This document shows positions 18,816 through 43,230 of a DNA stretch of 43,684 nucleotides, in pieces. Numbering within the stretch: the stretch's first letter is position 1; each line of letters starts with the position of its first letter. The position numbers were made by a program, and so were the translations under genes. Below the pieces are notes generated by a model. The model was not told the DNA's origin. It saw nothing but the letters and a program-made list of their open reading frames with translations, and ran no database searches. The stretch lies in NCBI GenBank assembly GCA_034520885.1, contig JAXHNE010000001.1:1-43684 (forward strand). The letters run 5' to 3'. The stretch is from Candidatus Saccharimonadota bacterium (lineage in GTDB: Bacteria > Patescibacteriota > Saccharimonadia > Saccharimonadales > JAXHNE01).

Positions 18816-18819
<4 letters not shown>

Positions 18820-18920
18820 AAGAGCTAGAAGCCAAAAGCTTAAAGCTTAGAGAAGAGCGGATAAGTGCTTACGGCTCTCAGCTTACGGCTGTCAGCTTGA
18901 GCGAAAGGAGTGAGCGATGA
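18816..18920 (+). other. Heptamer-hairpin spacer / coupled mini-ORF (34 aa, [34 protein letters not shown])
   Basis: ATGA overlap with the rpoB stop and with the rpoC start. Arms of period 7 built on AGCY and RGCT. Confidence 0.75.
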
Positions 18921-21900
18921 GGCGATACACATCAGGAACCGATATTGCGATGTTCGATGCCGTGCGACTGGCAGTGGCAAGTGCCGAAGACATTATGGAC
19001 TGGAGCCACGGCGAGGTCACCAAACCGGAAACCATTAACTACCGGACGCAAAAACCCGAACGCGACGGACTTTTCTGTGAACGCATTTTCGGGCCGGTCA
19101 AAGACATTAACCCGCATGATGCCAAGTACAAGGGCGTTCGTTCCCGCGAAGCCGCGGTGGACAAAAACGGCGAAATCGTTACCAAGGCCATTGTGCGGCG
19201 CGAACGCATGGGGCACATTCAGCTGGCCGCTCCGGTAGCGCATATTTGGTTTTTGCGTGGCACGCCGAGTGCCATTGGCTTGCTTTTGGGCATGACCGTT
19301 AAGAACTTGGAGCGCGTGGCGTACTTTGCCAGCTATATCGTCAAAAGCGTTGACGAAGAAAAGCGCGACCAACTATTCGCGGACAAGGAAGCGGAGTTTA
19401 CGGCGGCCAAAGAGGCCATCAAAGCCCGCTATGAAAAAGAGGCCAATTCGCCGGACGGCGAAGAAAATGCCAACGTTAAGGCGCTGGCCGAAATGCAAAG
19501 CAAAGAGCTGGACGAGCTCAACAAAGAGTTCGAACAGCTCAAGAACCAGTTCGACAAACTAAAACCGTGCGCTTTGATTAGCGAGAGCGATTATCGGGAG
19601 CTGCCCGACAACTTGGCCGAGTTAATAGAAGTCGGCATGGGCGGCGCGGCTTTGAAAGATTTGTTGGATGAGGTCAATCTGGAAGACGTGATTGCCAAAC
19701 TTAATGCCGAAGCCGAAGAAACCAAAGGGCAACGGCGCAAAAAGATTATGAAACGTTTGCGTTTGCTGGAGAACATGCACAAAGCCGGCATTCAACCCAG
19801 TAGCATGTGCGTATCCGCTTTGCCTGTAATCCCGCCGGATCTGCGACCCATGGTGCAATTGACCGGCGGTCGGTTCGCTACCAGCGATATGAACGATTTG
19901 TATCGCCGGGTGATCAACCGTAACAATCGCTTAAAGAAGTTGATTGACCTGAACGCTCCGGAAGTGATTCGCCGCAACGAACAACGCATGTTGCAAGAGG
20001 CGGTGGACGCTTTGATCGATAACAACAGTGCCCGCAGCGGGCGTGCCGTGGCCGCGACCGGACAACGACGGCGCCTGAAGAGCCTGAGCGACCTGCTGAA
20101 AGGCAAACAAGGACGATTCCGCCAGAACCTACTTGGAAAGCGCGTGGACTACTCCGGTCGTTCGGTGATCGTTGCCGGGCCGGAATTGGCAATCGATGAA
20201 TGCGGTATTCCCAAGATGATGGCCCTGGAATTGTTTAAGCCGTTCGTGATCGGTCGTTTGATCGCCAACGAACAGGCGCACAACATTCGCAGCGCGACGC
20301 GCATGATCGAGCTCGGGGAAACCGCCGTATGGGACGCGTTGGACGAAGTCATCAAAGGCAAATACGTGCTACTTAACCGGGCACCGACGCTGCACCGCTT
20401 GGGTATCCTTGCCTTCCAACCGAAGTTGATCGAAGGTAAGGCCATTCAGCTTCACCCGCTGGTCTGTAAAGGCTTTAACGCCGACTTTGACGGCGACCAA
20501 ATGGCCGTGCACTTGCCGCTTTCCGATGAAGCGCAAGCCGAAGCCCGGGAAATCATGGCCGCCAACAAGAACTTGCTGAAACCCGCTGACGGATCACCAA
20601 CGCTGCATATCGAACAAGATATCGTACTGGGTTGTTACTACTTAACGTACGACCGTAAGCAAACTGGCAAAGTAACCCACTACGCCGGGCTGGACGAAGC
20701 GGTTATGGCTCACGATAATGGCGCCATTACCCTGCAATCACGTATCGTGATCGTGTTCAGGGGTGAACGCCGCGAAACGACGCTCGGCCGCGTGCTATTC
20801 AACGAAATATTCCCCGACGACTTCCCGTTCCAGGACGAGCCGATGACCAAGAAGAAGCTTTCCAACGTCATGGCCTTGGTGTATCAAAAGTACGGACAAG
20901 AAGTGACCGCCAGAATTGCCGACGACCTCAAGGACGTCGGGTTCTTTTACGCCACCAAGTCCGGACTCTCCATGGGTATGGACGACTTTAGGGATATCGA
21001 AGGCCTGCAAGGGATCCTGGACAAAGGTGAGGAAAACGTCGGTGAAATTAGCGAGCAATACGAACAAGGCTTCATTACCGACGAAGAACGTCACCGCTTG
21101 ATCGTGGACGCCTGGCGCAAAGTGGACAACGAAGTTCAAGACGTCTTGTCCGATCAGTTTTCCAAGGAAGACAGCGCTATGTCCACCGCCGTGGTCTCCG
21201 GTGCCCGTGGTAATATCGGCCAGGTAAAAACCGCCGTGGGAATGTTCGGCCCCGTAGCCGACGCTACCGGCAAAACTATTGAGTTGCCGATTAAGTCCAA
21301 CTACAAGAAGGGCTTTAGCGCGCTGGAATACTTTACCGCCACGCGCGGCGCGCGTAAGGGCATGATTGACACTGCCCTGAAAACCGCCGACTCCGGGTAT
21401 TTGACCCGCCGGTTAGTGGACGTGTCGCAAGACGTGTTTACCATTGATGACGGCTCCGAAGATCCCGGGTTCCCGATTCACCGCAGCGAATCCGAGGATA
21501 TTGGCGTGCCGCTGTCCATGCGAATTTCCGGACGGTTCGCCGCCGAAGACGTAAAAGGCCACGTAAAGAAGGGCGAACTGATTACCGCCGACATCGCGGA
21601 CGCGATAGAAGCCGATGACAAGGTCGACGTGGTGCGCATCATGAGCGTACTGAGTTGCACCGACGTTCGCGGCGTATCGCGCAAATCCTACGGACTGGAT
21701 CCGGCAACCGGGGAACTGGTGGCCAACGCGCACCCCATTGGCGTTATCGCCGCGCAATCCATCGGTGAGCCGGGTACGCAGTTGACGCTCCGCACCTTCC
21801 ACTCCGGTGGTGTGGCCGGTGATGACATCACCACCGGTTTGCCGCGTGTCGAAGAGCTTTTCGAAGTACGCACGCCGAAAGGACAAGCCTACCTGTCAGA

Positions 21901-23307: not shown

Positions 23308-23460
23308 ATGGATAAAGAACAGTTTTACCCGAGCACTCAACGCCCCTGGGAAGAAGTGAATCAAAAACCCTTTCCAAACAATGGTGAAATCGAAGACGAC
23401 CCTAAGGTATTAGAAGCCTTTTACCGAGAGCAACAAGGAGACCAGACAGATGAGCAATGA
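23308..23460 (+). CDS. Orphan 50-aa ORF between rpsL and rpsG
   Basis: Translated by hand as MDKEQFYPSTQRPWEE...GDQTDEQ*; starts 5 nt after the rpsL stop. Confidence 0.55.
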   Translation: MDKEQFYPSTQRPWEEVNQKPFPNNGEIEDDPKVLEAFYREQQGDQTDEQ

Positions 23461-23527
23461 GCAAAGAGCAAAGAGCAATGAGCTTCGTGCGTTTTTCACG
23501 ATTCAGCGACTAAAAGGAGCACTGTAA
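23450..23527 (+). other. Heptamer spacer / coupled mini-ORF (25 aa, MSNEQRAKSNELRAFFTIQRLKGAL)
   Basis: GAGCAA(T/A) x4, CAGCGACTAAAAGGAG end block, TAATG overlap with rpsG. Confidence 0.75.
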
Positions 23528-24006
23528 TGCCACGACATAAAACCAAATCATTAGTACGAACCCCCAATCCCGACCGATTGTACAACAGTGTTATGGTGCA
23601 GCGCGTGATTAACCGCGTGATGTTAAACGGCAAAAAGCAGCTGGCCGAGCGCCTGGTGTACACCGGCATGCAAAAAGCGGCCGATGAACTGAAAGTCCAA
23701 AACCCGCTGGAGGTTTTTGAAAAGGCCTTCGCTAATATTAAGCCCAGCCTGGAAACCCGTTCCCGCCGCGTTGGCGGTGCTAACTACCAAATTCCGTTCG
23801 AGGTGAAAGGCCAACGCCAAAACCACTTAACGGTCATGTGGTTCGTCCGCGCCGCTCGTGACAAAAAAGGCATGAGCATGGCCGACCGTATCGCCCAGGA
23901 GTTGGTAGACGCCTACAACGAAACCGGCACGGCGGTGAAGAAAAAAGAAGATTCCCATAAGATGGCGGAAGCCAACCGGGCCTTCGCCCACTTCGCGAGG
24001 TACTAA
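23527..24006 (+). CDS. rpsG: 30S ribosomal protein S7
   Basis: SRRVGGANYQIP, HKMAEANRAFAHF. Confidence 0.99.
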   Translation: MPRHKTKSLVRTPNPDRLYNSVMVQRVINRVMLNGKKQLAERLVYTGMQKAADELKVQNPLEVFEKAFANIKPSLETRSRRVGGANYQIPFEVKGQRQNHLTVMWFVRAARDKKGMSMADRIAQELVDAYNETGTAVKKKEDSHKMAEANRAFAHFARY

Positions 24007-24007
24007 A

Positions 24008-24283
24008 ATGAGTGTCCATAAAAGCGCTGAAAGGTATCTTAAATCACTGGATAGGTTTGACGCTGCAACCGAAAAATACGAACACTCAAGTGAATTGGCT
24101 GAACAAGGTCGTTTGTTAAACAAGCTAGGCGTACTTGGGAGATTCGCGACACTCCAAATTGCGGCTGTGCGTTTGCAGGCTGCTGAGGAAGGTTTTGCTA
24201 TGAGCGTAGAAGGCTTATCAGTTGCACAGCAAGTAGATGCGTTTTTGTATGAAGATCAAGCAAAAGAAATACTGGAGACATAA
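24008..24283 (+). CDS. Orphan hypothetical protein between rpsG and fusA
   Basis: 91-aa ORF starting 1 nt after the rpsG stop. Confidence 0.6.
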   Translation: MSVHKSAERYLKSLDRFDAATEKYEHSSELAEQGRLLNKLGVLGRFATLQIAAVRLQAAEEGFAMSVEGLSVAQQVDAFLYEDQAKEILET

Positions 24284-24286
24284 ATA

Positions 24287-24364
24287 ATGGCAGGAAAGAA
24301 ATATCCAGTCAAAGAAAAACCAAATTGCATCCATCCGCAAAACCCTTCGGAGCTTTCAATATGA
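24287..24364 (+). other. 25-aa mini-ORF starting with a duplicate of the fusA 5' end (MAGKKYP)
   Basis: 23-nt exact repeat, 24285-24307 = 24805-24827; its stop overlaps the next ATG. Confidence 0.75.
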
Positions 24365-24684
24365 ATACCAAGCGGCTACCGGAATTGTCAGAGGAAGCGA
24401 AAGGGTTTGTCGCCGATCGAGTGGATGAAGTGCGTAAAGACGTGTTATCGGAAGCTGACCCACGACAAATTCTCATTACGGGTGAAGAGGTTATGATCGA
24501 TGCATTGCGTCGACGGCCAAAAATGAGAGACGTACAAACCGCACCGGACTCATTCCACGACGGTATCCAAAGACTTGTCACTGTAGCCCAGCCTGAGGCG
24601 GCCTTTCAACTGGTAGGTGAAGCGGTTGAAATATCGAGAATCGTAACTCAGCAAGATAAAGCATTTGAAATAAAGGAAGTTTAA
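24361..24684 (+). CDS. Orphan hypothetical protein (107 aa)
   Basis: ATG 24361 in an ATGA overlap, within ORF 24325..24684. Confidence 0.6.
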   Translation: MNTKRLPELSEEAKGFVADRVDEVRKDVLSEADPRQILITGEEVMIDALRRRPKMRDVQTAPDSFHDGIQRLVTVAQPEAAFQLVGEAVEISRIVTQQDKAFEIKEV

Positions 24685-24807
24685 ATGGTAAATAGAGAGA
24701 ATACCCGCGCTAATGCACGAAACCATCACAATGAGTTGGCCATTGGGAATTTAATGAAAATTGCAAATTGTAAATTGAAAATTGGAGCGACCGGAAGGAG
24801 CGACTAA
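24685..24807 (+). other. Heptamer spacer / coupled mini-ORF (40 aa)
   Basis: GnAAATT x4, GCGACCGGAAGGAG end block, TAATG overlap with fusA. Confidence 0.7.
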
Positions 24808-26891
24808 TGGCAGGAAAGAAATATCCACTAGGAAAAATTAGAAACATCGGGATTATCGCGCATATTGACGCAGGTAAAACCACCGTGACGGAAGGTATTT
24901 TGTACCGCACCGGTATTAAGCACAAGGTCGGGGCCGTGCACGAAGGCGAAACCACGACCGACTGGATGACACAGGAACGCGAGCGCGGCATCACCATCGT
25001 ATCCGCCGCCGTGACCTGTTACTGGAAAGACCACCAGGTCAACATTATTGATACTCCCGGACACATCGACTTTACCGTGGAGGTAGAGCGTTCACTTCGT
25101 GTGCTGGACGGCGCCGTGGTGGTGTTCGATGGCAAGATGGGCGTGGAAAGCCAGTCCGAAACCGTCTGGCGCCAGGCCGATAAATACAACGTGCCGCGTA
25201 TTTGCTTTATCAACAAGATCAACCAAACCGGCGGCGATTTTTACAAGTCACTGGAATCCATCCATAAACGCCTGTCTACCCGTGCTTTCCCGATTCACCT
25301 GCCAATCGGGTTCGAGCAAGGAGTTAACGGCGTGGTGGACTTAATCTCCATGAAAGCCTACACCTATAACGAATTTTTGGACAAAAACTTGACCGAAACC
25401 GAAGTTCCCGAGGACATGCAAGACAAGGTCAAAAAATACCGTTCGCTTTTGATCGAAAACGCCGTAGCGGAAGACGAAGAGTACCTGGAGAAGTTCCTGG
25501 AAGTCGGCGAAGAAGGCCTGAGCGAAGAAGACATCCGCCACGCGGTACGCCAAGCGACGCTGACCGGTAAATTTTTCCCGGTTAGCGGCGGAGACGGCCG
25601 CGGCGTTATCGTGGAAAAAGTTTTGGACATGGTGAACGGCCTGCTACCAAGTCCGATTGACCGCGGTGCTACCTGGGGCAAGCATCCCAAGACGGAAGAA
25701 GATATGTCCCGCGAACCGAGCGAAGACGGCCCTATGGCCGGATTGGCGTTTAAGATTACTTCCGACCCGTACGTTGGAAAATTGGCGTACTTCCGCGTCT
25801 ACTCCGGCGTATTGAAAGCCGGATCGTACGTGATGAATACTTCCACCGGCGATAAAGAACGCGTGGGACGTATCGTGCGTATGCAAGCCGACAAGCGCGA
25901 GGAAGTCGACCAAGTCGGCGCCGGCGACATTGCCGCGATCGTGGGGCTAAAATCCACCACCACCGGCGATACACTGTGCGATCAAAACGACCAGATCGTG
26001 CTGGAAAACATCACCTTCCCCGAACCGCCCGTTAGCATCGCCATTGAACCCAAGACCAAAGCCGACCAAGAAAAGATGAGCCAGGCCTTGCAGCGATTAG
26101 CGGAAGAAGATCCGACCTTTAAGGTGCAGGTGGATGACGAAACCGGCCAAACCATCATTAGTGGCATGGGCGAGCTTCACCTGGAGATTTTGGTAGACCG
26201 CATGAAGCTGGAATTCAAAGTGGAAGCCAACATCGGTGCGCCACAAGTGGCTTACCGTGAAACCATCCGCCGTGACGGCGTAGAAGCCCAAGGGAAGTTC
26301 ATTCGACAATCCGGAGGCCGCGGACAATACGGTGACGTTTGGCTACGCTTGAGCCAAAACGAGTCCGGCGCGGGCTTTGAGTTCATCAACTCCATTAAGG
26401 GAGGCGTGGTGCCGCAGGAATACATCAAACCGGTCCAACAAGGTATCGAACAAGCCATGAGCAACGGTGTCGTGGCCGGATACCCGGTCGTGGACGTCAA
26501 AGCCGAACTGTATGACGGAAGTTACCACGACGTTGACTCCAGTGAAATGGCGTTCTCTGCCGCCGGCTCCATCGCATTTAAAGAAGGCATGAAAAAGGCC
26601 AAGCCAACGCTTTTGGAACCCATCATGAAAGTCGTGGTGGTCACCCCGGAAGAGTTCATGGGCGACGTGATCGGCGACTTGAATTCCAAGCGCGGACGCG
26701 TGGAATCCATGGAAGACCTCACCCCCGGCGTGAAGGAAATTACCGGATTCGTACCCCTTGGCGAAATGTTCGGCTATACGACGAATCTACGATCCACGAC
26801 CCAAGGCCGGGCCAGCTCCAGCATGGAACTAGATCACTACGACGACGTCCCCGGCAACGTCGCCGAAGCCATTGCCGCCAAGACCGAATAA
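24807..26891 (+). CDS. fusA: Elongation factor G
   Basis: AHIDAGKTT, RGITI, DTPGH, GMGELHL, QSGGRGQYG; 694 aa. Confidence 0.99.
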   Translation: MAGKKYPLGKIRNIGIIAHIDAGKTTVTEGILYRTGIKHKVGAVHEGETTTDWMTQERERGITIVSAAVTCYWKDHQVNIIDTPGHIDFTVEVERSLRVLDGAVVVFDGKMGVESQSETVWRQADKYNVPRICFINKINQTGGDFYKSLESIHKRLSTRAFPIHLPIGFEQGVNGVVDLISMKAYTYNEFLDKNLTETEVPEDMQDKVKKYRSLLIENAVAEDEEYLEKFLEVGEEGLSEEDIRHAVRQATLTGKFFPVSGGDGRGVIVEKVLDMVNGLLPSPIDRGATWGKHPKTEEDMSREPSEDGPMAGLAFKITSDPYVGKLAYFRVYSGVLKAGSYVMNTSTGDKERVGRIVRMQADKREEVDQVGAGDIAAIVGLKSTTTGDTLCDQNDQIVLENITFPEPPVSIAIEPKTKADQEKMSQALQRLAEEDPTFKVQVDDETGQTIISGMGELHLEILVDRMKLEFKVEANIGAPQVAYRETIRRDGVEAQGKFIRQSGGRGQYGDVWLRLSQNESGAGFEFINSIKGGVVPQEYIKPVQQGIEQAMSNGVVAGYPVVDVKAELYDGSYHDVDSSEMAFSAAGSIAFKEGMKKAKPTLLEPIMKVVVVTPEEFMGDVIGDLNSKRGRVESMEDLTPGVKEITGFVPLGEMFGYTTNLRSTTQGRASSSMELDHYDDVPGNVAEAIAAKTE

Positions 26892-26906
26892 GGGTATAGT
26901 AAAGTT

Positions 26907-27131
26907 ATGGAACTAAATCAAATACCGCGCGGCGAGTATGACCCAAGGGAGATGACTACGCACGAAGCTTCCGTGTTGGTGCAGCTGGGAAGGCGTATTG
27001 TGCGCATGGTTAGAGAGCCTTTTAGTGATCTGAAAGCTATTTTAGAGATAGCCGACCACACTGACACGGCCCAGGAGTACCCGGCACCCGAAGACGAGTA
27101 TCTAACTGGTGTACGGTCGATGAAAGCTTGA
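26907..27131 (+). CDS. Orphan hypothetical protein
   Basis: 74-aa ORF with TATAGT 6 nt upstream of ATG. Confidence 0.55.
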   Translation: MELNQIPRGEYDPREMTTHEASVLVQLGRRIVRMVREPFSDLKAILEIADHTDTAQEYPAPEDEYLTGVRSMKA

Positions 27132-27159
27132 AGCGACAAAAGATAAGGGAGTTTTGTGT

Positions 27160-27291
27160 ATGCCCGAAACCGAACCACGAGTTGAACCTAAGAGCCCTTC
27201 ATCTATGGACCAAGTTACGGACTCCGGTCTTTACGACGCGTTTGAGCAAATGGTCGTGACCGTGAGCTCCCACGCAATAATTGATTACTAA
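27160..27291 (+). CDS. Orphan 43-aa ORF
   Basis: AAGGGAG SD; MPETEPRVEPKSP...IIDY*. Confidence 0.4.
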   Translation: MPETEPRVEPKSPSSMDQVTDSGLYDAFEQMVVTVSSHAIIDY

Positions 27292-27300
27292 GGAAGCGCT

Positions 27301-28119
27301 GTGCTAGAAAGAACCACAACTGAAATTCCAGGGTTGGGATGGACCGAAAAGCTTCACCCGAAGTTTGCGGAGAAGTCTCCCGGTCAAGCCATGCATGGAG
27401 CGGCTCGCAGAATTGTAAGTATTGGCGACCCGAGGCGGCGCGCACTGTTTCAACTCGAAAAAGACGAAGCTGAGTTACGGGGCTACTTTGCCAAAGTGCT
27501 CGAAGAGGTTGCGGAAGGTGGCGACACTATGATGCAGATCGGTGCTCACGACGGAAGTTTTGACGATCCGTTTAGCGCGCTCGTGCCTTCGTTCAAAAGG
27601 GCGGTGCTGGTTGAGCCGCAGGCTGAGCAGTTCAAGAAATTACAGGAACGTTACAAAGACGTTTCGAGCGTTATTCTGCGCAGGGAGGCAGTCGCGGCCA
27701 CCAGCGGTTCTATTGTGCTGCACCGTGCCGCCATTGACTCGGCTGCAGAGTTCGGGAGCGCGATTGCCGCTACGGACCCCGAACAAGTTCAAAGCGAAAT
27801 TAAAAGATGCCTTGGTTATCGAGCGGTTCGCAAAGTAGTGTTAGAAAAAGAAGAGGTGCCGGCAACAACCATGGCGGCCTTATTAGCCGACACTATGCCG
27901 GATGGAGCGAGCTTGACTATGCTCGCGAGTGATACCGAAGGTTCCGACGCGCTTGTGGTTCGCGGAGCGGTTGGCGAGCACGGCCTACGGCCACCCGTGA
28001 TCCAGTATGAACACCTACACGTTGATCAAACTACGAGCCGGGAGCTTACGGGGGAGCTTTCGGCAATCGGGTACCAGCTTACAAAAACGCATAAAGATAC
28101 GCTTGCGGTTCTCGGCTAA
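27301..28119 (+). CDS. FkbM-family SAM-dependent methyltransferase
   Basis: QIGAHDG (motif I variant), VLVEP, SDTEGSD, IQYE. Confidence 0.8.
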   Translation: MLERTTTEIPGLGWTEKLHPKFAEKSPGQAMHGAARRIVSIGDPRRRALFQLEKDEAELRGYFAKVLEEVAEGGDTMMQIGAHDGSFDDPFSALVPSFKRAVLVEPQAEQFKKLQERYKDVSSVILRREAVAATSGSIVLHRAAIDSAAEFGSAIAATDPEQVQSEIKRCLGYRAVRKVVLEKEEVPATTMAALLADTMPDGASLTMLASDTEGSDALVVRGAVGEHGLRPPVIQYEHLHVDQTTSRELTGELSAIGYQLTKTHKDTLAVLG

Positions 28120-28265
28120 ATTGCCAACAAATTACTTTACAAACAGCGGTAGATTAGGTAGTATGTTCTAGTAACTCGCGCGAGGGCGTTGCTCGCTGTG
28201 TACTCAGCAAAAGGCAATATGGACCGCGAATATAGTAAAGAATAAGTAAGAGGAGACAATAACAC

Positions 28266-29450: not shown

Positions 29451-29474
29451 GCGACACGCGACCACAAAAGAATT

Positions 29475-34141: not shown

Positions 34142-34143
34142 CA

Positions 34144-34244
34144 ATGTCTCACTGCGTTCAACATTCGCGCAATGAAAAACGAGTAGTGAGCAGTGGCTTC
34201 TCTGTTTTTGTTGTCTGCTGACGACCAACGAAAGGAGACCTTTC
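34144..34244 (+). other. Degenerate spacer element; mini-ORF stops early at 34221 in an error-rich zone
   Basis: 5' hairpin AATGT-ctcactgcgttca-ACATT and 3' block CGACCAACGAAAGGAG. Confidence 0.55.
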
Positions 34245-35092
34245 ATGAGTCTGAAACAGTACAAGCCGACTACTCCCTGCTGCTGGCAATGCACCGGTTA
34301 GGGTTTACAGAGCTTACGCCAATAAACGGTGAAGAGTTTGCTACGTGCCAAAAAACAAAACAGCGGCCGCAACAACCAGGGGCGAATCACCACCCGTCAT
34401 CGCGGCGGCGGCGTAAAACGCTTTTACCGCGTGGTTAACTTTAACCTTGCTCCGGGCACGACCGCGACGGTGGAACACATTGAATACGACCCCGACCGCA
34501 GCGCCCGCATTGCCCGCTTGAAAGACCAGGACAATCAGTATCACGATACGTATTGGCCGCCAACAAAATGAAGGTCCGGCGATAAGATCGATTCCGGCGA
34601 AGAAGCGCCGCGACCGAAACCGGGAACCGTCTAAGCGCTACAAGACAGATTCGCGCGGGAAGCAATCGTTCACGCCGGTGGAAATGCAGCCCGGATCCGG
34701 TGGGAAGTTGGTTCGTTCGGCCGGTGCCGGCGCCCAATTGGTCGCCAAAGAAGGCAACTACGCCCAGATTAAGCTACCGAGTAGCGAGGTGCGTATGGTG
34801 CACATCAACTGCGGCGCGACAATCGGTGTGGTCGGCAATGAACAGCACCAGAACATGAAGGTCGGAAAGGCCGGACGCGTCCGAGCCAAAGGCCGCCGCC
34901 CGCAAGTACGCGGCATTGTCATGAACGCGGCCGATCACCCGCACGGTGGTGGAGATGGTGGCTCGCACGGTGTTGGCCGCGACCCACGCACACCATGGGG
35001 CCAGAAAACACTGGGATACAAGACCCGCAAGCGGATCCAAGCAAAGTAATAAGTTTATCGTGCGCAGCAGACACGTAAGAAAGAGGAAGTAA
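34245..35092 (+). CDS. rplB: 50S ribosomal protein L2 (several apparent indels)
   Basis: [46 protein letters not shown]. Confidence 0.96.
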
Positions 35093-35094
35093 CT

Positions 35095-35340
35095 ATGGCT
35101 GTAAAAGAAAGATTAGCCGAAACTATGGATGTTGCCAAAAATCTACTCGATCATTTGGCGGATGAATCCCCACATTTTGAAGGTGGGTTAACCGGCGGAA
35201 GACAAGCAGCTCGAGAAATCGAAGCGTTTTCGCCAGCTGAAGCAATGGACGCATATTTGACATCTGATGATCCGTCAGATTTCAGACTGGGGTTTGCATT
35301 GGGGTTTTATGTGGAAAAGTATGAGACAGGTACATTATGA
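35095..35340 (+). CDS. Orphan hypothetical protein between rplB and rpsS
   Basis: 81-aa ORF starting 2 nt after the rplB stop. Confidence 0.6.
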   Translation: MAVKERLAETMDVAKNLLDHLADESPHFEGGLTGGRQAAREIEAFSPAEAMDAYLTSDDPSDFRLGFALGFYVEKYETGTL

Positions 35341-35561
35341 GTAGATTATTCGAAATAGACCAAATTGCTTTCGAAAAAGGATATGCAGATGTGCACCAAG
35401 CCGTTAGTGAGGGTGTCCATATTTCTGAGGTCGAGAACTCACTAGGCCTGGTTGGTTGTGGAATCAGTGGATTTGCCTGTGTATGCAATCAATCGCGTGT
35501 GGGCGAAGAGATCGATATCTATGATTACGTTGATGGAATAAAGAGGCTGAAGCACAAGTGA
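35337..35561 (+). CDS. Orphan hypothetical protein
   Basis: 74-aa ORF, ATGA-coupled to the previous one. Confidence 0.55.
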   Translation: MSRLFEIDQIAFEKGYADVHQAVSEGVHISEVENSLGLVGCGISGFACVCNQSRVGEEIDIYDYVDGIKRLKHK

Positions 35562-35576
35562 TGATGGAGTTTTGTT

Positions 35577-35842
35577 ATGAGATCGCTGAAAAGGGACCGT
35601 TTATTGATCCGAAGTTGGAGAAGAAAGTTCAGGCTTTGGGTAAAGAAGACCGCGACCATCATTAAGACATGGGCGCGCAGTAGTACGATTTCCCGGATTT
35701 CGTTGGCCGCACCATTGCCGTGCATAACGGTAAAGTACATGTTCCCGTCCACGTGACGGAAAACATGGTCGGCCACAAGCTGGGTGAGTTCGCCCCGACC
35801 CGTAAGTTCCGTAAACACGGTGGAAAGTTAGCGAAGGCGTAA
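35577..35842 (+). CDS. rpsS: 30S ribosomal protein S19 (frameshifted)
   Basis: Across frames: [36 protein letters not shown]. Confidence 0.95.
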
Positions 35843-35847
35843 AACGT

Positions 35848-36267
35848 ATGGCAGTTAAAGCAATCGCAAAATCAGTTCGTATGAGCCCCCGCAAAGTCGG
35901 TGTAGTGGCCAGCTTGGTGCGTGGCCGCAGCGTGGCCGACGCGATTACCATTCTGGAGCACACGCCGCGCCGCAGCGCTTTGCCGGTTAAAAAAGTCATT
36001 GAATCCGCTCGCGCCAACGCCGATTATAACCACGGCTATAAACCCGAAACCTTGAAAATTACCGAAATTACCGTCAATGGCGGTCCGAGCTACAAGCGCT
36101 TTAAGCCGATTGCCCGCGGTGGAGCCCACCCCTACCAACTGCGTACCTCACACATTTCCGTTACCGTGGACGGCGAAAAGCGAGCAGCTAAGAGCAATAA
36201 ACCGAAAGCCGAAAGCTCAAAGCTAAAAGCTGGAAGTCAAAAGACGCCAGCAAAGGAGAAGAAGTAA
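35848..36267 (+). CDS. rplV: 50S ribosomal protein L22 with a repeat-derived C-terminal tail
   Basis: RMSPRK, SARANA, RTSHISV. Confidence 0.98.
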   Translation: MAVKAIAKSVRMSPRKVGVVASLVRGRSVADAITILEHTPRRSALPVKKVIESARANADYNHGYKPETLKITEITVNGGPSYKRFKPIARGGAHPYQLRTSHISVTVDGEKRAAKSNKPKAESSKLKAGSQKTPAKEKK

Positions 36268-36518
36268 TGGAAACTAAGAACTGGAAGCAGGCAGGAGACA
36301 GATATTTCGATATGTCGAAACTATTAGTTGATAGTGACGTGCAGCCAGGCTCCTCCCGCTTGGATGCAGTACGCGGAGACAGCGAAGCACGGACCGAGCC
36401 GTATGAATCATACGGTGAAGGGAGTACTGGAGATGACGACAAAGTAATGCGCCAAGAGACTTGGCGAGGTTCTGAGCTTGGCTCAGAAACTGGCCAAGGC
36501 GGCGGAGGAGACTGGTAA
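36267..36518 (+). other. Palindromic-element ORF (83 aa), TAATG-coupled at both ends
   Basis: Shares CCGCTTGGATGCAG and CGAGCCGTA..TACGGTGAAG with 38440-38733. Confidence 0.7.
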
Positions 36519-37150
36519 TGGGACAGAAAGTTAATCCAATCAGCATGCGCCTACAAGTCAATAAGGATTGGCGCAGCAAATGGTTCGCCAATAAGCGTGA
36601 TTACGCGGAATACCTGACGCAAGACCTCAAGGTGCGCCGTTATATCAAGAATAAACTCGGATCACGAGCCGCGATTAACAATATTGATATTGAGCGCTCA
36701 CCGAACTTGGTCAACGTAACCATATCTACCGCGAAAGCCGGTGTGGTCATTGGCCGTGGTGGCGCGGGCGTACAAGAGCTGAAAGACGCCATTGAAAAAA
36801 TTTACGGCGTGCAAGTGCGCGTAAATATCGAGGAAGTCAAAAAGCCCGAACTGTACGCACAGTTAGTCGCCGAAAACATCGCTCATCAAATTGAGCGGCG
36901 TATCTCTTGGCGCCGAGCCATTAAATCGACCGCGGCCGCGACCATGCGAGCCGGGGCGAAAGGTATTCGTATTGAAGTATCCGGCCGATTGGGCGGCGCG
37001 GAGATGTCCCGACGTGAAAAAGAAGTCCAAGGAAGCGTGCCGCTCCATACGGTACGCGCCAATATTGATTACCACGCGGCCCGAGCGCAATATCCCGGAG
37101 CCGGTGTTGTCGGCGTAAAAGTGTGGATTTATAAAGGGGAGAATCAATGA
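36518..37150 (+). CDS. rpsC: 30S ribosomal protein S3
   Basis: MGQKVNP, SGRLGGAEMSR, GVKVWIY. Confidence 0.99.
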   Translation: MGQKVNPISMRLQVNKDWRSKWFANKRDYAEYLTQDLKVRRYIKNKLGSRAAINNIDIERSPNLVNVTISTAKAGVVIGRGGAGVQELKDAIEKIYGVQVRVNIEEVKKPELYAQLVAENIAHQIERRISWRRAIKSTAAATMRAGAKGIRIEVSGRLGGAEMSRREKEVQGSVPLHTVRANIDYHAARAQYPGAGVVGVKVWIYKGENQ

Positions 37151-37311
37151 TGTTTCGTTTCACTCAACATCAGAGCACGGAGCACGGAGCAAGGAGCAAG
37201 GAATTTTTCACTGCTCATCAAGCGTTATCACTGCTCAGTAATCAGTGTTCAGTACACGGATTACAGACAACAGACAACGGATCACGACAACTGGAGGTTG
37301 TACTATGTTGA
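37147..37311 (+). other. Heptamer-hairpin spacer / coupled mini-ORF (54 aa, MMFRFTQHQ...)
   Basis: ATGA overlap with rpsC; stop overlaps the rplP start; GATGTT/AACATC hairpin and GAGCAnG repeats. Confidence 0.8.
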
Positions 37312-37718
37312 TGCCGAAGAAAACCAAGTACCGAAAAGTCCGCAAAGGCGTTATCAAGGGCAAGGCGACCAAAGGCCATTACATTGCTCACGGTGACTAT
37401 GCTTTGCAGAGCCTGGAAATGGATCGCGTGACGTCACGGCAAATTGAGTCGGCGCGTCAGGCCATGACCCGCTACATTAAGCGTGGCGGTAAAATTTGGA
37501 TTCGTATCTTTCCGCACACACCGGTAAGCAAGAAGCCCCAGGACGTAAAAATGGGGAGCGGTAAAGGCAACCCCGAGTATTTCGTGGCCAAGGTTCGTCC
37601 CGGCACCATTTTGTTCGAGATGCAAGGTGTTCCGGAGGCGACGGCACGCGAGGCCATGCGACTCGCCGGGAACAAGTTACCGGTAAAGACCCGCTTTATC
37701 GTGAAGGAGAATGCATGA
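37305..37718 (+). CDS. rplP: 50S ribosomal protein L16
   Basis: [34 protein letters not shown] before ATG 37305. Confidence 0.99.
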
Positions 37719-37840
37719 TGTTTCGTTACGTTCAACATCGGAATATGGAATATGAAATATGGAATATATCCGTATTTTATAAGACGTTACTTTCCATTTT
37801 CCGCTTTTCACCTTCCGTAACGACGAAAGGAGTTGCTTGA
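37715..37840 (+). other. Heptamer-hairpin spacer / coupled mini-ORF (41 aa, MMFRYVQHR...)
   Basis: ATGA and TGATG overlaps; GGAATAT repeats against TTCC repeats; CGACGAAAGGAG end block. Confidence 0.8.
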
Positions 37841-38040
37841 TGAAAGTCGTAGAAATTCGAAAACTATCAACCGATGGGCTTACCAAACAAAGCACCGCTT
37901 TGCGCGAAGAAATTGCAGAGCTAAAACGTCGCCTGCACTCCGGTGAGGTGCAAAACGTACGCGCTATTCGAGCCAAGCGCAAAGATCTGGCACGCGTACT
38001 TACCGTACTTGGCGAACAACTCAGAGAGGAGGCAGTATGA
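37840..38040 (+). CDS. rpmC: 50S ribosomal protein L29
   Basis: EIRKLS...RKDLARVLTV; position between rplP and rpsQ. Confidence 0.93.
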   Translation: MKVVEIRKLSTDGLTKQSTALREEIAELKRRLHSGEVQNVRAIRAKRKDLARVLTVLGEQLREEAV

Positions 38041-38156
38041 TGTTTCGTTACACGCAACATTGGAGCAAGGAGCAAGGAGCAAGGAGCAAAGAATTTTTCA
38101 CCGCTCACTACTCAGGACTCACTGCTCAGCGACTGAAAGGAGCATATCATGGGTAA
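38037..38156 (+). other. Heptamer-hairpin spacer / coupled mini-ORF (39 aa, MMFRYTQHW...QRLKGAYHG)
   Basis: ATGA overlap; stop overlaps the rpsQ start; GGAGCAA x4 against RCTCA repeats. Confidence 0.8.
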
Positions 38157-38443
38157 AACATTACGAGGTGTCGTCGTATCGGAAAAAGGTGATAAGACCA
38201 TTGTGGTTCGTATTCAAAACAGCAAGACACATCCCATTTACCACAAACAGTTTTTCGTGTCCCGCAATATCATGGCGCATGATGAAAAAAATGAAGCGCA
38301 CGAAGGCGACACGGTGACTATCACGGAAACCAAGCCGGTGAGCGCCCGCAAACGTTTCGCCCTGAAAAAAGTGGTAACAACCGCGGGAATTGAACACGTT
38401 GAACCAGAACCTGCCGTTACGGTCGAAGAGGAACGAAGGATGA
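38149..38443 (+). CDS. rpsQ: 30S ribosomal protein S17 (as given, reads in-frame on to 38733)
   Basis: GVVVSEKGDKTIVV, HPIY, AHDE, ETKPVS.RKRF. Confidence 0.95.
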
Positions 38444-38733
38444 GTAACAAGCAACAGGCGATAAGCGGTACGGCTGTGAATCAACTCGTTCTCGAGCCAG
38501 ATTCTTTCCGCTTGGATGCAGCGCAAGGAAGCGACAAAGCGCGGAATGGTAAGGCTCAGCACTTTTCTGAGCTTGTGAGTGCAAGGCGCCCGCGAAAGGC
38601 ACAACGAGCCGTACTTCAACGTACGGTGAAGCGAGCATTGCAGTTGGCAACGCAGCAGTCGCGGCTACGAACTGCGGATTTGTGTGCTTTGCTCACAAAC
38701 AGGCAGTTCAGACAGAAAAGGGCTAAAGTATGA
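38440..38733 (+). other. Palindromic-element ORF, in frame with rpsQ and ATGA-coupled to rplN
   Basis: Shares two blocks with 36267-36518. Confidence 0.65.
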
Positions 38734-39098
38734 TTCAGCAAGAATCACGCTTAACCGTCTGCGACAACAGTGGCGCCCGCGAAATACTATGTATTCGCGT
38801 GTTGGGCGGAACTCGCCGCCGGTACGCTAAAGTCGGTGACGTTATTACGGCGACCGTAAAAGAAGCTACTCCCGGCGGTACCGTCAAGAAGAAGAGCGTC
38901 GTAAAAGCCGTGGTCGTTCGCTCCCGCGATGGCATTCGCCGCAAAGACGGATCGACCATCAAGTTTGACGACAACGCCGCGGTAATCATTGCTGATGATA
39001 AAAACCCCAAGGCGACTCGTATTTTCGGTCCCGTTCCGCGCGAATTGCGCGATATGGGATACGCGAAAATTATTAGCCTTGCACCGGAGGTTTTGTAA
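38730..39098 (+). CDS. rplN: 50S ribosomal protein L14
   Basis: [27 protein letters not shown]. Confidence 0.99.
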
Positions 39099-39436
39099 TG
39101 AGTGTTGGAGAAGGACTGGAGCGGACACCAATGATGCGAGAACCCAGAGCTGTTAAATCTAAAATTAATTCCATTCAACACAACAGTGCATTGAACTCAC
39201 TACATGACTGGTTAAGAATGCAAGGCCTAGAAGGTGACGATATAAAGGTGGCATTTCATGGTTTTAGACGAGGACTTCGATACTATGACGGGCAAGAAGC
39301 TGAGGTTGATGAAACTTTTCGAGGGTCTCTCGTTCTAGACACGGAAAAAACTGAAGACTTTTGGAAATACAATGGAGTCGGTGAGTTAGTTTCAAGGATA
39401 CTTCGTGATACACACCAAGGAGCTGAAGATGAGTAA
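39098..39436 (+). CDS. Orphan hypothetical protein between rplN and rplX
   Basis: 112-aa ORF overlapping both neighbours. Confidence 0.65.
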   Translation: MSVGEGLERTPMMREPRAVKSKINSIQHNSALNSLHDWLRMQGLEGDDIKVAFHGFRRGLRYYDGQEAEVDETFRGSLVLDTEKTEDFWKYNGVGELVSRILRDTHQGAEDE

Positions 39437-39758
39437 AATATTTAAGATCAAGCTGAAGAAGGGCGACAATGTGATGGTGCGCGCCGGAAAGCACAAAGGC
39501 AAGACCGGTAAGGTCGCTGAAGTTCATCCAAAGTTGAATGCCGTGACAGTTGAAGGTATTAATATTGTCAAGAAGCATCAAAAGCCGAATCGCGCACATC
39601 CCCAAGGTGGAATTTTAGAGATCATCAAGCCAATTGCGGTAAGCAAAGTAGCAATTGTTGAGCCAACCAGCAAAAAGCCGAGCAAAATTGGTTTTAAGGT
39701 TGATGAAGAAGGTAATAAAGTTCGTATTTATAAGCGAACCGGAAAGGAGATCAGATGA
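39429..39758 (+). CDS. rplX: 50S ribosomal protein L24
   Basis: KOW motif KKGDNVMVRAGKHKGKTG, VEGIN; AAGGAG SD before ATG 39429. Confidence 0.98.
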   Translation: MSKIFKIKLKKGDNVMVRAGKHKGKTGKVAEVHPKLNAVTVEGINIVKKHQKPNRAHPQGGILEIIKPIAVSKVAIVEPTSKKPSKIGFKVDEEGNKVRIYKRTGKEIR

Positions 39759-39877
39759 TGTTTCGTTTCACTCAACATCAGAGCAAAGCGCAAAGAGCAA
39801 TGAGCAATGAAGCCGCTCAGAACTTCTCTGCCCCCCGATCTCCGATCTTTAAACTTCGACTGAAAGGAGTTCTGTAA
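39755..39877 (+). other. Heptamer spacer / coupled mini-ORF (40 aa, MMFRFTQHQ...RLKGVL)
   Basis: ATGA and TAATG overlaps; first 31 nt identical to the 37147 element. Confidence 0.8.
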
Positions 39878-40542
39878 TGGCGACGAAAGCGGAAAGCCCA
39901 AAGCCGAAAGCCGAAAGCAAGACAGCCCAAAGCTCAAAGCCGAAAGCTGAAAGCAAAGTGGCAAAGAAACCAGCGAATAAAGCCGGTGCTTATTCTCCAC
40001 GCTTAAAACGGTTGTACGAGAGCACTTACAAATCCGAGCTTCGCAAAGAACTTGAATTGAAGAACACTAACCAAGTACCCAAACTGGAGAAGGTCGTTCT
40101 TAACGTTGGCCTCGGGAAATCCAAGGACGACAAGCGTATGATGGAAGTCGCCGAAAATACCCTGACCAAAATCACCGGCCAAAAACCGGTGGATACCATG
40201 GCCAAGAAATCCATTGCCGGCTTTAAGCTGCGCGAAGGCAATAAGATCGGCTTGAAGGTAACGTTGCGTGATCAACGCATGTACGAATTCATGGATCGAT
40301 TGATCAACATTGTGCTCCCGCGCCTGCGTGACTTTCACGGCGTGAGTAGTAAGTCATTCGACGCCAACGGGAATTACAGCATTGGGCTGGTTGATCAGTC
40401 CGTGTTTCCGGAACTCAGCTTTGACGAAACCACGCACGCGCACGGTATGCAAGCCGTATTCGTGGTGAAGAGTGAAGACAAAGCCCACGCTCGTGCTTTG
40501 CTGGAAAAGTTCGGCATGCCGTTCGAAAAGGAAGAAGCATGA
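39877..40542 (+). CDS. rplE: 50S ribosomal protein L5 with a repeat-derived N-terminal extension
   Basis: PKLEKVVLNVGLG, ITGQKP, FKLREG, LPRLRDF. Confidence 0.99.
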   Translation: MATKAESPKPKAESKTAQSSKPKAESKVAKKPANKAGAYSPRLKRLYESTYKSELRKELELKNTNQVPKLEKVVLNVGLGKSKDDKRMMEVAENTLTKITGQKPVDTMAKKSIAGFKLREGNKIGLKVTLRDQRMYEFMDRLINIVLPRLRDFHGVSSKSFDANGNYSIGLVDQSVFPELSFDETTHAHGMQAVFVVKSEDKAHARALLEKFGMPFEKEEA

Positions 40543-40670
40543 AATACGAAGTACGAAATAAGAAACAAGCACGAAGCATGAAACCGAGAAGTTTCGGTCT
40601 TCAAATTTCAAATTTGTTTCAGTTTTCAAATTTCAGTCTTCAAAATTTAATTAATAAGAAGGAGTCGTAA
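40539..40670 (+). other. Heptamer-hairpin spacer / coupled mini-ORF (43 aa, MKYEVRNKKQ...)
   Basis: ATGA overlap with rplE; stop 1 nt before rpsN; paralog of 32943-33053. Confidence 0.8.
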
Positions 40671-40671
40671 G

Positions 40672-40941
40672 ATGGCAAGAAAAGCAAATATTGCCCGAGA
40701 CGCTAAGCGACGCCGAATGCATGAGAAGTATGCCGCGAAGCGTGCAGAGCTCAAGAAACTCGGTGATCGCGAGGGTCTGCACAAGCTACCACGCAATAGC
40801 AGCCCTACAAGATTAAAAAACCGGTGCAGTGAAACCGGGCGACCGCACGCCTACATGCGTCAGTTTGGCCTAAGTCGTATAAGTTTTCGTGAACATGCCA
40901 GCAAGGGTGAGATTCCCGGCGTAACGAAGTCGAGTTGGTAA
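40672..40941 (+). CDS. rpsN: 30S ribosomal protein S14, long Zn-independent (C-) type
   Basis: 89 aa; [29 protein letters not shown]; single Cys. Confidence 0.98.
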
Positions 40942-40946
40942 GGAGT

Positions 40947-41060
40947 ATGAAGATGTTTTACTACGTTCAACACCGGAGCAAGGAGCAAGAAACAAGAAAC
41001 AAGGACTTCACTGCTCACTGCTCACTGCTCACTGCTCAGCGACTGAAAGGAGCGCAATAA
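40947..41060 (+). other. Heptamer-hairpin spacer / coupled mini-ORF (37 aa, MKMFYYVQH...QRLKGAQ)
   Basis: SD overlapping the rpsN stop; GRARCAA x4 against CTGCTCA x4; TAATG overlap with rpsH. Confidence 0.8.
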
Positions 41061-41461
41061 TGTCGAAAGTTTCTACGGAACCCATCGCTGATATGCTGAC
41101 TCGTATTCGCAATGCCATTTTGGTAAGAAAAACCGAAGTATCTTTGCCGCATTCCAACGTCAAGGAGTCGATTGCTACGCTTTTAAAGGACAACGGCTAC
41201 GTTGATGACGTAAAGGTCGGGAAGGCCGAGGTCGGCAAACAGCTGACGATTACTATTAACGACGAAGACAGCAATGCCCGTATTACCGAAATCGCCCGTG
41301 TCAGCAAACCCGGTCGCCGCAACTATAGCAAAGCGACCAAGTTGCCCGTGGCCAAACGCGGACGCGGTATTTACGTAATCAGTACCAGCCAAGGTTTAAT
41401 GACCGACGCCAAAGCCCGTGAACTGGGCGTGGGCGGCGAAGTTATTTGTAAGGTATATTAA
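41060..41461 (+). CDS. rpsH: 30S ribosomal protein S8
   Basis: PIADMLTRIRNA, SKPGRR, STSQG, GGEV. Confidence 0.99.
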   Translation: MSKVSTEPIADMLTRIRNAILVRKTEVSLPHSNVKESIATLLKDNGYVDDVKVGKAEVGKQLTITINDEDSNARITEIARVSKPGRRNYSKATKLPVAKRGRGIYVISTSQGLMTDAKARELGVGGEVICKVY

Positions 41462-41565
41462 AGGAGTTAAAGGTTGAAAGTATAAAGTTCATAAAGTAGA
41501 GGAAAAGCAAAACCTTTTCACTTTCTACATTGCAACTTTAAACTATCTGACCGAAAGGAAGATTT
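41462..41565 (+). repeat. Heptamer-hairpin spacer without an intact mini-ORF
   Basis: AAAGT-type repeats against ACTTT-type repeats; GACCGAAAGGAAG end block. Confidence 0.65.
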
Positions 41566-42105
41566 ATGAGTCGAATAGGAAAACTACCGATCAAAGTTCC
41601 ATCCGGTGTGACAATCACTGTCGACGATGATCACATTACCGTCAGCGGGACGAAAGGAACGCTCACGCAATTTACGATGCCGGGCGTGAACGTTAAGCAC
41701 GAAGGCGACGAAGTGGTCGTGACGCGGGTGAACGACGAACCCAAAAACCGGTCGAAACACGGGTTGATGCGCACGCTCATTAATAATATGGTCGTGGGTG
41801 TCAGCGAAGGATTCAGTAAAAAACTGATACTCAGTGGCGTCGGTTACCGCGTAGCGTTGGCCGGGAACGACCTGAAAATGCAACTCGGGTTGAGTCACGA
41901 GGTGGTGTATCCATTGCCACAAGGCGTTAGTGCCAGTGTTGATCAGAACGAGATTACCATCAGTGGACACGATAAGCAGCAAGTCGGACAAGTCGCCGCG
42001 GAAATTCGTAAACTTAAAAAGCCCGAACCGTACAAAGGCAAAGGAATTGCTTACGAGGGCGAACGGATTCTGCGCAAGTCCGGTAAGTCAGGAAAGGAAG
42101 CGTAA
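41566..42105 (+). CDS. rplF: 50S ribosomal protein L6
   Basis: MSRIGKLPI, GVGYR, PEPYKGKGI. Confidence 0.99.
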   Translation: MSRIGKLPIKVPSGVTITVDDDHITVSGTKGTLTQFTMPGVNVKHEGDEVVVTRVNDEPKNRSKHGLMRTLINNMVVGVSEGFSKKLILSGVGYRVALAGNDLKMQLGLSHEVVYPLPQGVSASVDQNEITISGHDKQQVGQVAAEIRKLKKPEPYKGKGIAYEGERILRKSGKSGKEA

Positions 42106-42108
42106 ATC

Positions 42109-42465
42109 ATGAGTAGACTACAACACACCGCCCGCAACTTGGCCCGCCGCAAGAATCGTATCCGAAAGACCGTTTCCGGTACTTCCCAGCGACCACGTTT
42201 GGTGGTATTCGTCAGCAATCAACACGTTGAAGCGCAAATTATCGATGACACCAAAGGGACTACGTTGGCGCACAGTACGACGGTCGGCCAAAAGGCCGCA
42301 AGCGGTACTATGACGGACAAAGCCGCATGGGTCGGCAATGAAATCGCTAAGCACGCGAAGCAGAAGAAAATTAAACGAGTCGTATTGGACCGCAATGGTC
42401 GGCTGTATCACGGTCGAATCAAAGCGCTGGCCGATGCCGCTCGGGAAGGAGGTCTGGAGCTATAA
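42109..42465 (+). CDS. rplR: 50S ribosomal protein L18
   Basis: [30 protein letters not shown]. Confidence 0.98.
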
Positions 42466-43115
42466 TGGCGACGACAAATCCACAATCCAAAGAGCGCCCG
42501 GCCGCTGAAGAAAAGCAGTTCGAAGAGCGCGTATTAAATATCGACCGCGTAGCTCGTGTCGTCAAAGGCGGACGGCGTTTCCGTTTCCGTGCCCTCGTAG
42601 TAGTCGGTGATCGCAAAGGAAAAGTCGGCGTGGGTATCGCGAAAGGCGCGGACGTTACTTCGGCTATTAGTAAAGCTACCGATGTTGCCAAGAAAAGCAT
42701 GATAACCGTTGCGTTGGCCAAGAATACCATTCCGCATGAAACGGAGACCAAGCTTAGCGGTGCGCGCATTCGCCTGATGCCCGCCAGCCCGGGTACCGGT
42801 TTGATCGCCGGCGGTGCGGTGCGTACCATTTTGGAAGTTGCCGGTGTAAAAAACGCGCTTTCTAAGTCACTCGGTTCGAGCAACAAGGCGAACATTGCCT
42901 ACGCTACAATCAAAGGCCTGGAGAGTATCCAAAGTGAAGACCAGTGGTTAACCACTAAGGTAGCCGGAAGCTCAAAGCTCAAAGCCGAAAGCAAGACGAC
43001 CGGAAGCTCAAAACCGAAGGCCGAAGGCAAGACGGCTCAAAGCCCAAAGCCGAAGGCTGAGAAGAAAACCACCGCTAAGAAGTCCGAGAAGAAGACGGAG
43101 AAAAAGAATGCGTAG
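42465..43115 (+). CDS. rpsE: 30S ribosomal protein S5 with a repeat-derived C-terminal tail
   Basis: RVARVVKGGRRFRF, PGTGLIAGG, KSLGSSN. Confidence 0.99.
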   Translation: MATTNPQSKERPAAEEKQFEERVLNIDRVARVVKGGRRFRFRALVVVGDRKGKVGVGIAKGADVTSAISKATDVAKKSMITVALAKNTIPHETETKLSGARIRLMPASPGTGLIAGGAVRTILEVAGVKNALSKSLGSSNKANIAYATIKGLESIQSEDQWLTTKVAGSSKLKAESKTTGSSKPKAEGKTAQSPKPKAEKKTTAKKSEKKTEKKNA

Positions 43116-43230
43116 CATTTCAAGTAACAAGCAATACGTAACAAGTAATATGGGAAATGTATTAAACCGAAACCCACATAGCCTTTTACTTTCTACATTT
43201 TACCTTTTGCTGAAACCGGAGGTTTCTTAA
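43108..43230 (+). other. Heptamer spacer / coupled mini-ORF (40 aa) at the usual rpmD position
   Basis: Start overlaps the rpsE end; TAA directly abuts the rplO ATG; AGTAA-type and TAC(T/A/C)TT-type repeats. Confidence 0.7.

Follow-up and report, generated by a model that had tools for sequence, protein, structure and literature searches.

Why should the spacers between some of the most conserved genes of a reduced bacterial genome be occupied by short open reading frames (ORFs) that begin on the stop codon of one gene and end on the start codon of the next? The question is raised by a stretch of 43,684 nucleotides (nt) from a Candidatus Saccharimonadota bacterium, hereafter the window, which is the whole of contig C1 of an 11-contig, 988-kb genome (G000) that is 92.5% complete, and which carries genes for RNA polymerase (RNAP) and ribosomal proteins. 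A first-pass annotation had listed eleven mini-ORFs of this kind at the gene junctions, and all eleven are intact at the positions it gave, with 25-54 codons. Here, we show that open frames coupled to both neighbouring genes are real and strongly non-random in the window. Judged from the sequence, their best explanation, at a probability of roughly 70%, is that non-autonomous repeats resembling MITEs (miniature transposable elements with inverted repeats) may persist in these operons as translational relay cistrons.

An insert was counted as doubly coupled under a strict rule when a single ATG-started ORF began between -3 and +11 nt relative to the upstream stop and ended no more than 11 nt from the downstream start, and the null was taken from 2000 dinucleotide shuffles per spacer with a Poisson-binomial P. 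Twelve of the 16 inserted junctions in the window passed this rule against 0.86 expected (P = 1.7e-17), and a laxer rule that allows ORF relays gave 14/16 against 3.3 expected. Shuffling was one of the checks that the first-pass annotation had named, and the coupled frames lie far above the shuffles. The control spacers passed in 1/16 cases when reversed and in 0/16 when reverse-complemented. It could be argued that composition or faulty assembly produced the open frames, since some heptamers of the repeat arrays described below (e.g. GAGCAAG) are stop-free in all frames, two spacers have a null rate of 0.36-0.45, and the contig ends are of poor quality. We give this argument almost no credence. 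It is at odds with the count of 12, with the failure of the reversed and reverse-complemented spacers, and with the finding of identical spacer sequences in an independent assembly. Moreover, the coupled frame is open while the remaining frames are mostly closed by 1-14 stops, the stops per frame being 4/2/0 at rpoB>rpoC, 0/4/4 before fusA, 2/8/0 at rplV>rpsC and 8/14/0 at rplN>rplX.

The excess is replicated outside the window. At locus L006, from a genome of another taxonomic family, all 7 of 7 inserts are doubly coupled against 0.64 expected. Among 33 loci from named Saccharibacteria, 12 have inserts of 50-400 nt, and 24 of the 29 inserts pass the strict rule where 1.2 would be expected; two of these 29 rows are artefacts (L038, a gene broken by Ns, scored as passing; L082, probably a frameshifted gene, scored as failing), and without both the count is 23/27. 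Three of the four remaining failures are at rpsN>rpsH or rpsH>rplF, junctions that were ancestrally gaps rather than overlaps. In the rest of the window genome, on simple ORF calls, 9 of 25 same-strand spacers with heptamers are doubly coupled (0.81 expected), as are 12 of 355 spacers without heptamers (6.1 expected). Heptamer elements are thus also found in other operons, and the restriction to RNAP and ribosomal junctions that was first proposed does not hold.

For a comparison of junctions, 17 ribosomal proteins were placed on 20 loci from relatives. In the window genome, spacers of 74-330 nt occupy 12 of the 15 S10-spc junctions, together with a fused 300-nt insert at rpsQ>rplN, whereas in three genomes of the same genus the distance at those junctions is -4 to +23 nt, mostly TAATG, with the exception of -61 at rplX>rplE, which is a mis-projection. 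Elsewhere in the order, most genomes have TAATG or ATGA overlaps or gaps of a few bases at these junctions, and rpoB>rpoC is TAATG in three of four relatives and +2 in the fourth. The inserts are therefore specific to the lineage of the window genome, and the earlier proposal of insertion at ancestrally coupled junctions agrees with the overlaps that relatives have there. At rpsH>rplF the ancestral junction is a gap of 9-23 nt, and the failures concentrate at ancestral gap junctions, rpsH>rplF and rpsN>rpsH. The junctions of the str operon are more variable among relatives. As a separate observation, loci L115-L118 have unrelated small ORFs of 56-104 codons that are doubly coupled between rpsL, rpsG and fusA.

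That an insert can take over an ancestral start is shown by the junction before fusA. An exact 23-nt direct repeat, which includes TAATG and the first six fusA codons, is found at 24285-24307 and 24805-24827, and flanks a 520-nt insert with an unknown 107-codon ORF and the mini-ORF at 24685. A 25-codon relay ORF (24287-24364) opens with the duplicated fusA start and reads MAGKKYP as in fusA. A relay ORF is therefore opened today by the ancestral start codon, which supports the proposed takeover in at least one case.

The elements are modular: a 5′ module, which is short and carries an ATG in most copies, is followed by heptamer repeats rich in purines, then by a loop and by heptamers partly complementary to the first ones. 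The period-7 arrays in the spacers were recovered by Tandem Repeats Finder. The 5′ module is of type A (ATGATGTTTCGTTNCACNCAACAT), of type B (a mini-hairpin, AAAATGY-N3-4-RCATTTT) or of a third type (ATGAARTACGAAG). Type A has 7 copies, one of them at 15501 of contig C3, and is found only in the ribosomal supercluster; a loose motif search returned 95 matches that were mostly spurious, and only the true type-A copies were kept. Many copies end with a 3′ module, GCGACTRAAAGGAG, which bears a Shine-Dalgarno sequence (SD) and is followed by the next start 5-8 nt on, in line with the earlier suggestion that the elements supply a new SD for the next gene. Of 401 genomes of the order, 15 have this 3′ module, and none of the three congeners does; a reversed control pattern gave one match each in four genomes. 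Ten similar copies lie in a single ribosomal gene cluster of genome G147. For the 30 copies with a downstream gene, a spanning ORF was found in 27 and an abutting upstream ORF of at least 50 codons in 22.

Could the mini-ORFs encode functional small proteins? Their peptides had been described as mostly unrelated, which is not the case: N-termini (MMFR[FY][TV]QH, MKYE[AV]RN, MRSI) and RLKG C-termini are common to several copies. Moreover, the ORFs of 83-112 codons, like those of 56-104 codons in the str operons of relatives, could be real genes. However, the common residues are imposed by shared DNA modules whose reading frame varies, the 3′ module reading RLKG in 18 copies, ATERS in 7 and the third frame in 1, and the middles of the mini-ORFs are heptamer repeats that differ between copies. 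The type-B module keeps base pairs and not codons (for example, a change of ATG to TTG is compensated on the other arm), and a search of Pfam, the sole comparison made for the ORFs of 83-112 codons, gave no family match. We therefore consider functional small proteins improbable. Since at least two reading frames are used for the same module, it is likely that selection acts on the open frame and not on the peptide, as the first-pass annotation had supposed. On contig C2 (62632-62672) five GCAAAGA heptamers are read through in frame (LAKSKEQRAKSKELLDSDDEEL), which suggests that heptamer arrays may also expand inside coding sequence.

RNA structure, the other proposed target of selection, fared differently. 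The hairpins are uneven in strength, with fold z-scores from -5.8 to +0.1, and many are no better than shuffles, which corrects the earlier description of heptamer hairpins. No selection on the sense-strand fold was detected, sense versus antisense stability being 18 versus 17 of 40 elements (p = 0.57). Rfam at the gathering score gave 0 matches in the window, and a tRNA scan likewise gave none. The fold results bear on the idea that the inserts are a regulatory layer, in which relay cistron and hairpin tune ribosome supply or mRNA stability and the host keeps the inserts for stoichiometry. The products of the host operons do need fixed ratios, some of the folds are strong, and the type-B mini-hairpin is conserved with compensatory changes: in a 14-sequence alignment its pairing is kept across four genomes (95.9% of cells paired), 2 of 7 pairs have double changes, and the observed covariation score was reached by 0/500 shuffles. 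On the other side, antisense folds are as stable as sense folds, and sequestration of the start codon was rejected because pairing of the mini-ORF AUG is not preferential (0.46 versus 0.43 in shuffles, p = 0.75, n = 40). The inserts are lacking in the three congeners and in most genomes of the order, and the same junctions hold unrelated sequences in other genomes. A regulatory layer is unlikely on this evidence, and the elements would rather appear to be mobile and selfish.

To understand how such inserts may persist, we consider what a spacer does to translational coupling. According to Huber et al. 2023 (PMC10666635), gaps of about 20 nt almost abolish termination-reinitiation coupling. If coupling is lost at such a gap, an insert of 80-330 nt would uncouple the downstream gene. 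We suggest that the elements landed at stop/start overlaps within essential operons of one Saccharibacteria lineage, and that the copies that persisted would be those that formed relay cistrons. A terminating ribosome would restart at the ATG of the element, translate the insert in its open frame, and terminate on or beside the start of the next gene, just past an SD. The inserts would then be translated by ribosomes, and coupling would be the property under selection.

Several observations weigh against this relay-cistron reading. Four of the 16 window junctions fail the strict rule: rpsL>rpsG is a two-ORF relay, the ORF at 43108 starts 8 nt before the upstream stop, and rplD>rplW (where the sequence is poor) and rpsH>rplF fail outright. 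Elsewhere in the genome, 16 of the 25 heptamer spacers fail, and genes outside the window were called simply as ORFs. In congener G001, the rpsG>fusA spacer is 500 nt long and shares the heptamer array upstream of fusA, but it is uncoupled and has no relay. As every downstream gene has retained an SD, it is conceivable that de novo initiation might suffice. Clear terminal inverted repeats, as expected of a MITE, were not seen, the 5′ and 3′ modules not being complementary in a direct reading and only the internal arms pairing, and no transposase is linked to the elements. Another trait of MITEs, multiple dispersed similar copies without a transposase, was found.

A different reason for keeping the inserts translated would be protection from Rho. 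Untranslated stretches of an operon are prone to Rho-dependent termination, and an untranslated insert would let Rho terminate transcription of the genes that follow. The C/T-rich second arms are consistent with this idea. However, polarity has no need of an ORF that ends exactly on the next start, which is what is observed. Moreover, a search for the Rho_RNA_bind family that was positive in 9 of 14 control genomes did not find it in the window genome, which is 92.5% complete. We regard protection from Rho as very improbable.

No target site duplication is evident for the heptamer elements; flanking repeats are the 23-nt one at the 520-nt insert and two exact 14-nt ones in a second, non-heptamer family of other genomes. 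That family has doubly coupled ORFs at L037, L046, L050 and L063, in inserts of 103-115 nt with a conserved GGGAAAAGAGCAGCC core, an inner hairpin and CGCGATGAGAAAAACC, and exact 14-nt duplications of the SD-stop-start junction flank 2 of its copies. Genes of the Y1_Tnp type are commoner in genomes with the 3′ module (12/15 versus 98/386 genomes, Fisher p = 2e-5); as the genomes are related to each other, the co-occurrence is only a lead. In the window genome, contig C5 (~6300-7200) carries a 230-codon Y1_Tnp-like gene, resembling a REP-associated tyrosine transposase (RAYT), with perfect 27-nt palindrome copies on both sides in the classic layout of repetitive extragenic palindromic (REP) elements. 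This gene was rejected as the mobiliser, its flanking palindrome being different from the heptamer elements. We tentatively raise the possibility, to which we give clearly less weight than to the relay-cistron reading itself, of a guild of mobile relay cassettes in Saccharibacteria that target overlapping stop/start junctions and rebuild both sides, with the 5′ mini-hairpin and the 3′ module as cis sites of a mobilising enzyme. The junction would be rebuilt either by a long target duplication of SD, stop and start or by the ATG and SD modules of the element itself. If this were true, RNA polymerase and ribosomal protein operons could be colonised at almost no cost.

The elements had been put forward as a candidate new system. 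Mycobacterial interspersed repetitive units (MIRUs) were reportedly described by Supply et al. in 1997. According to a 2025 review (PMC12548453), MIRUs are apparently mobile, insert at start codons and have an ORF coupled at -4 nt, and a 2011 review (PMC3184786) states that MIRU ends overlap the neighbouring genes of polycistrons and that filled and empty sites exist. As far as these accounts go, MIRUs (40-100 bp, inside polycistrons) and the elements here are alike in that ORF ends overlap the flanking genes. The elements here are likewise dispersed between co-oriented operon genes, have an ORF that overlaps or abuts its neighbours, and leave filled and empty sites; this is a likeness by behaviour. 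With MIRUs described in this way, the elements are better seen as a variant within the MIRU kind than as a new category, and the claim of a system new in concept is not upheld. They differ from MIRUs in their heptamer-repeat arms, 5′ mini-hairpin and SD-bearing 3′ module, in being from a different phylum, in filling the majority of junctions in the RNAP, str, S10, spc and alpha operons, and in that several unrelated families behave alike. Tandem arrays of whole units, in the style of variable number tandem repeats, were not seen in the window by Tandem Repeats Finder.

Other repeats share single features. Like REP elements with RAYT, the elements are hairpin repeats in operon spacers of a genome with one Y1_Tnp-like gene, but that gene is flanked by another palindrome, which does not match the dispersed copies. 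The heptanucleotide short tandemly repeated repetitive (STRR) sequences of cyanobacteria and the Nezha MITE are tandem heptamers in intergenic DNA, often as inverted pairs, and the elements here resemble them in this. To our knowledge, neither coupled ORFs nor junction targeting has been reported for STRR or Nezha. The palindromic elements of Rickettsia are, according to a review (PMC10969869), also repeats tolerated through in-frame translatability, but they fuse into host proteins, while the elements here are separate cistrons bounded by stop/start overlaps. The geometry of the ATGA and TAATG overlaps is that of ordinary -1/-4 coupling (PMC10666635), used twice per insert; unlike ordinary overlaps, it is carried by, or rebuilt around, inserted DNA. 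In the main texts of the literature, supplements aside, we found no description of such elements for Saccharibacteria or Patescibacteria.

The inserts amount to a large natural experiment on translational coupling, with dozens of independent insertions into a reduced genome's most conserved operons. That inserts are tolerated almost only as doubly coupled open frames, with any peptide, supports strong selection for short-range termination-reinitiation. A little-known behaviour of the MIRU type is also extended to the candidate phyla radiation. We would also like to point out that small 'hypothetical proteins' between ribosomal genes in metagenome-assembled genomes of Saccharibacteria are often repeat-derived relay ORFs, and that assemblies tend to break at the inserts.

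Sequence quality differs along the window. C1 overlaps contig C7, whose end matches at 94-95% identity with many indels, and contig C3, whose start matches at 99% identity with 32 gap openings, the duplicated parts being 1-18391 and 34357-43684. The contig ends are therefore of low quality and frameshifted; in the window copy, frameshifts affect rpoB, rplB, rpsS and most of the genes in 1-17000. An independent assembly of short reads from a public run differs from the window at 0-2 positions per contig piece in 23400-33306 and 37168-43399, compared with 41 substitutions plus 48 gaps in 33557-37135, and it has an additional G at 38432. Because of this mismatch, the window does not allow a judgement on the 34144 spacer or on the rplD>rplW junction. 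Among sequencing runs, none of RNA was found to contain the stretch. By comparison of L14, the nearest named relatives are Candidatus Saccharibacteria / Saccharimonadales at 83-89% identity. The gene order by Pfam is rpoB, rpoC, rpsL, rpsG, two unknown ORFs, fusA, two unknown ORFs, tuf, rplC, rplD, rplW, rplB and rpsS (both broken in the window), rplV, rpsC, rplP, rpmC, rpsQ, rplN, rplX, rplE, rpsN, rpsH, rplF, rplR, rpsE and rplO.

All inserts of the window are on the + strand. In 8 mini-ORFs (18816, 23450, 32943, 37147, 37715, 38037, 39755 and 40539) the ATG overlaps an upstream TGA (ATGA), which at 23450 is the stop of a first relay ORF and not that of rpsL. The mini-ORF at 24685 starts right after a TAA, that at 40947 lies 5 nt past a TAA, and that at 43108 starts 8 nt before the TAG of rpsE. 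The eleven end at -8 to +1 nt of the downstream start, through TAATG/TGATG, through ATGA or, at 38156, through an 8-nt overlap. Five coupled inserts lie beyond the earlier list, at 23308-23460, 24287-24364, 36267-36518, 38440-38733 and 39098-39436.

Between rpoB and rpoC, a 97-nt insert gives an intact 34-codon relay ORF (18816-18920) with an ATGA overlap at either end. After rpsL, the 50-codon first relay ORF (23308-23460) begins 6 nt past the rpsL stop and overlaps the ATG of a 25-codon heptamer mini-ORF with the 3′ module (23450-23527), which ends on rpsG as TAATG. Coupling at both ends, as first described, holds for the listed ORFs with the qualification that 23450-23527 reaches rpsL only via this 50-codon ORF. 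The 40-codon heptamer mini-ORF at 24685-24807 ends on fusA as TAATG, and its heptamer array is the one also present in G001. Three spacers had been described as lacking an ORF. This is so for the heptamer hairpin 5′ of rpsJ (30609-30700), which has the strongest fold (z = -5.8), whose frames are closed by a TAA-containing heptamer and which no upstream gene end adjoins, and for the hairpin insert at rpsH/rplF (41462-41565), with 1-3 stops in each of the three frames. The third, a degenerate type-A element at rplW/rplB (34144-34245), lies where the window disagrees with the independent contigs.

In the S10 and spc region, rplC/rplD holds a 36-codon mini-ORF of the MKYEARN subfamily (32943-33053) where relatives have TAATG, and an 83-codon coupled ORF (36267-36518) fills the 250-nt insert at rplV/rpsC, with TAATG at both ends and TAATG in relatives. 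Type-A mini-ORFs follow at rpsC/rplP (54 codons, with heptamers, 37147-37311), rplP/rpmC (41 codons, with heptamers, 37715-37840) and rpmC/rpsQ (39 codons, with the 3′ module, 38037-38156). At rpsQ/rplN, a 97-codon coupled ORF (38440-38733) ends on rplN as ATGA; it is fused to rpsQ in the window because a single G is missing at 38432, and is separate in contig C3. The 112-codon coupled ORF at rplN/rplX (39098-39436) has an ATG that overlaps the last base of the rplN TAA (TAATG), and it overlaps rplX by 8 nt. Further type-A mini-ORFs are found at rplX/rplE (40 codons, 39755-39877) and rpsN/rpsH (37 codons, with the 3′ module, 40947-41060). Between them, rplE/rpsN holds a 43-codon MKYEVRN mini-ORF (40539-40670) whose last codons, NKKES, equal the C-terminus of rplE in congeners. 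The 40-codon type-B mini-ORF at rpsE/rplO (43108-43230) contributes its 5′ mini-hairpin to the covariation alignment.

Longer coupled ORFs of 83 to 97 codons have a common motif (AQRAVLQRTVKR, RLDA), at 38440-38733 in the window, at 11675-11947 of contig C3 and, in part, at 36267-36518 in the window, and so form another repeat family. An analogous ORF pair at L006 has WERAILRKSSL in common. Elsewhere in the window, a 172-nt tandem duplication (2 copies, 95% identical; 29536-29886) follows tuf and a 60-nt tandem repeat (2.4 copies; 31056-31199) follows rpsJ. The rpsJ and rplC genes, usually adjacent in relatives, are separated by a 1.27-kb gap (31041-32310) that contains minus-strand ORFs of 126-201 codons.

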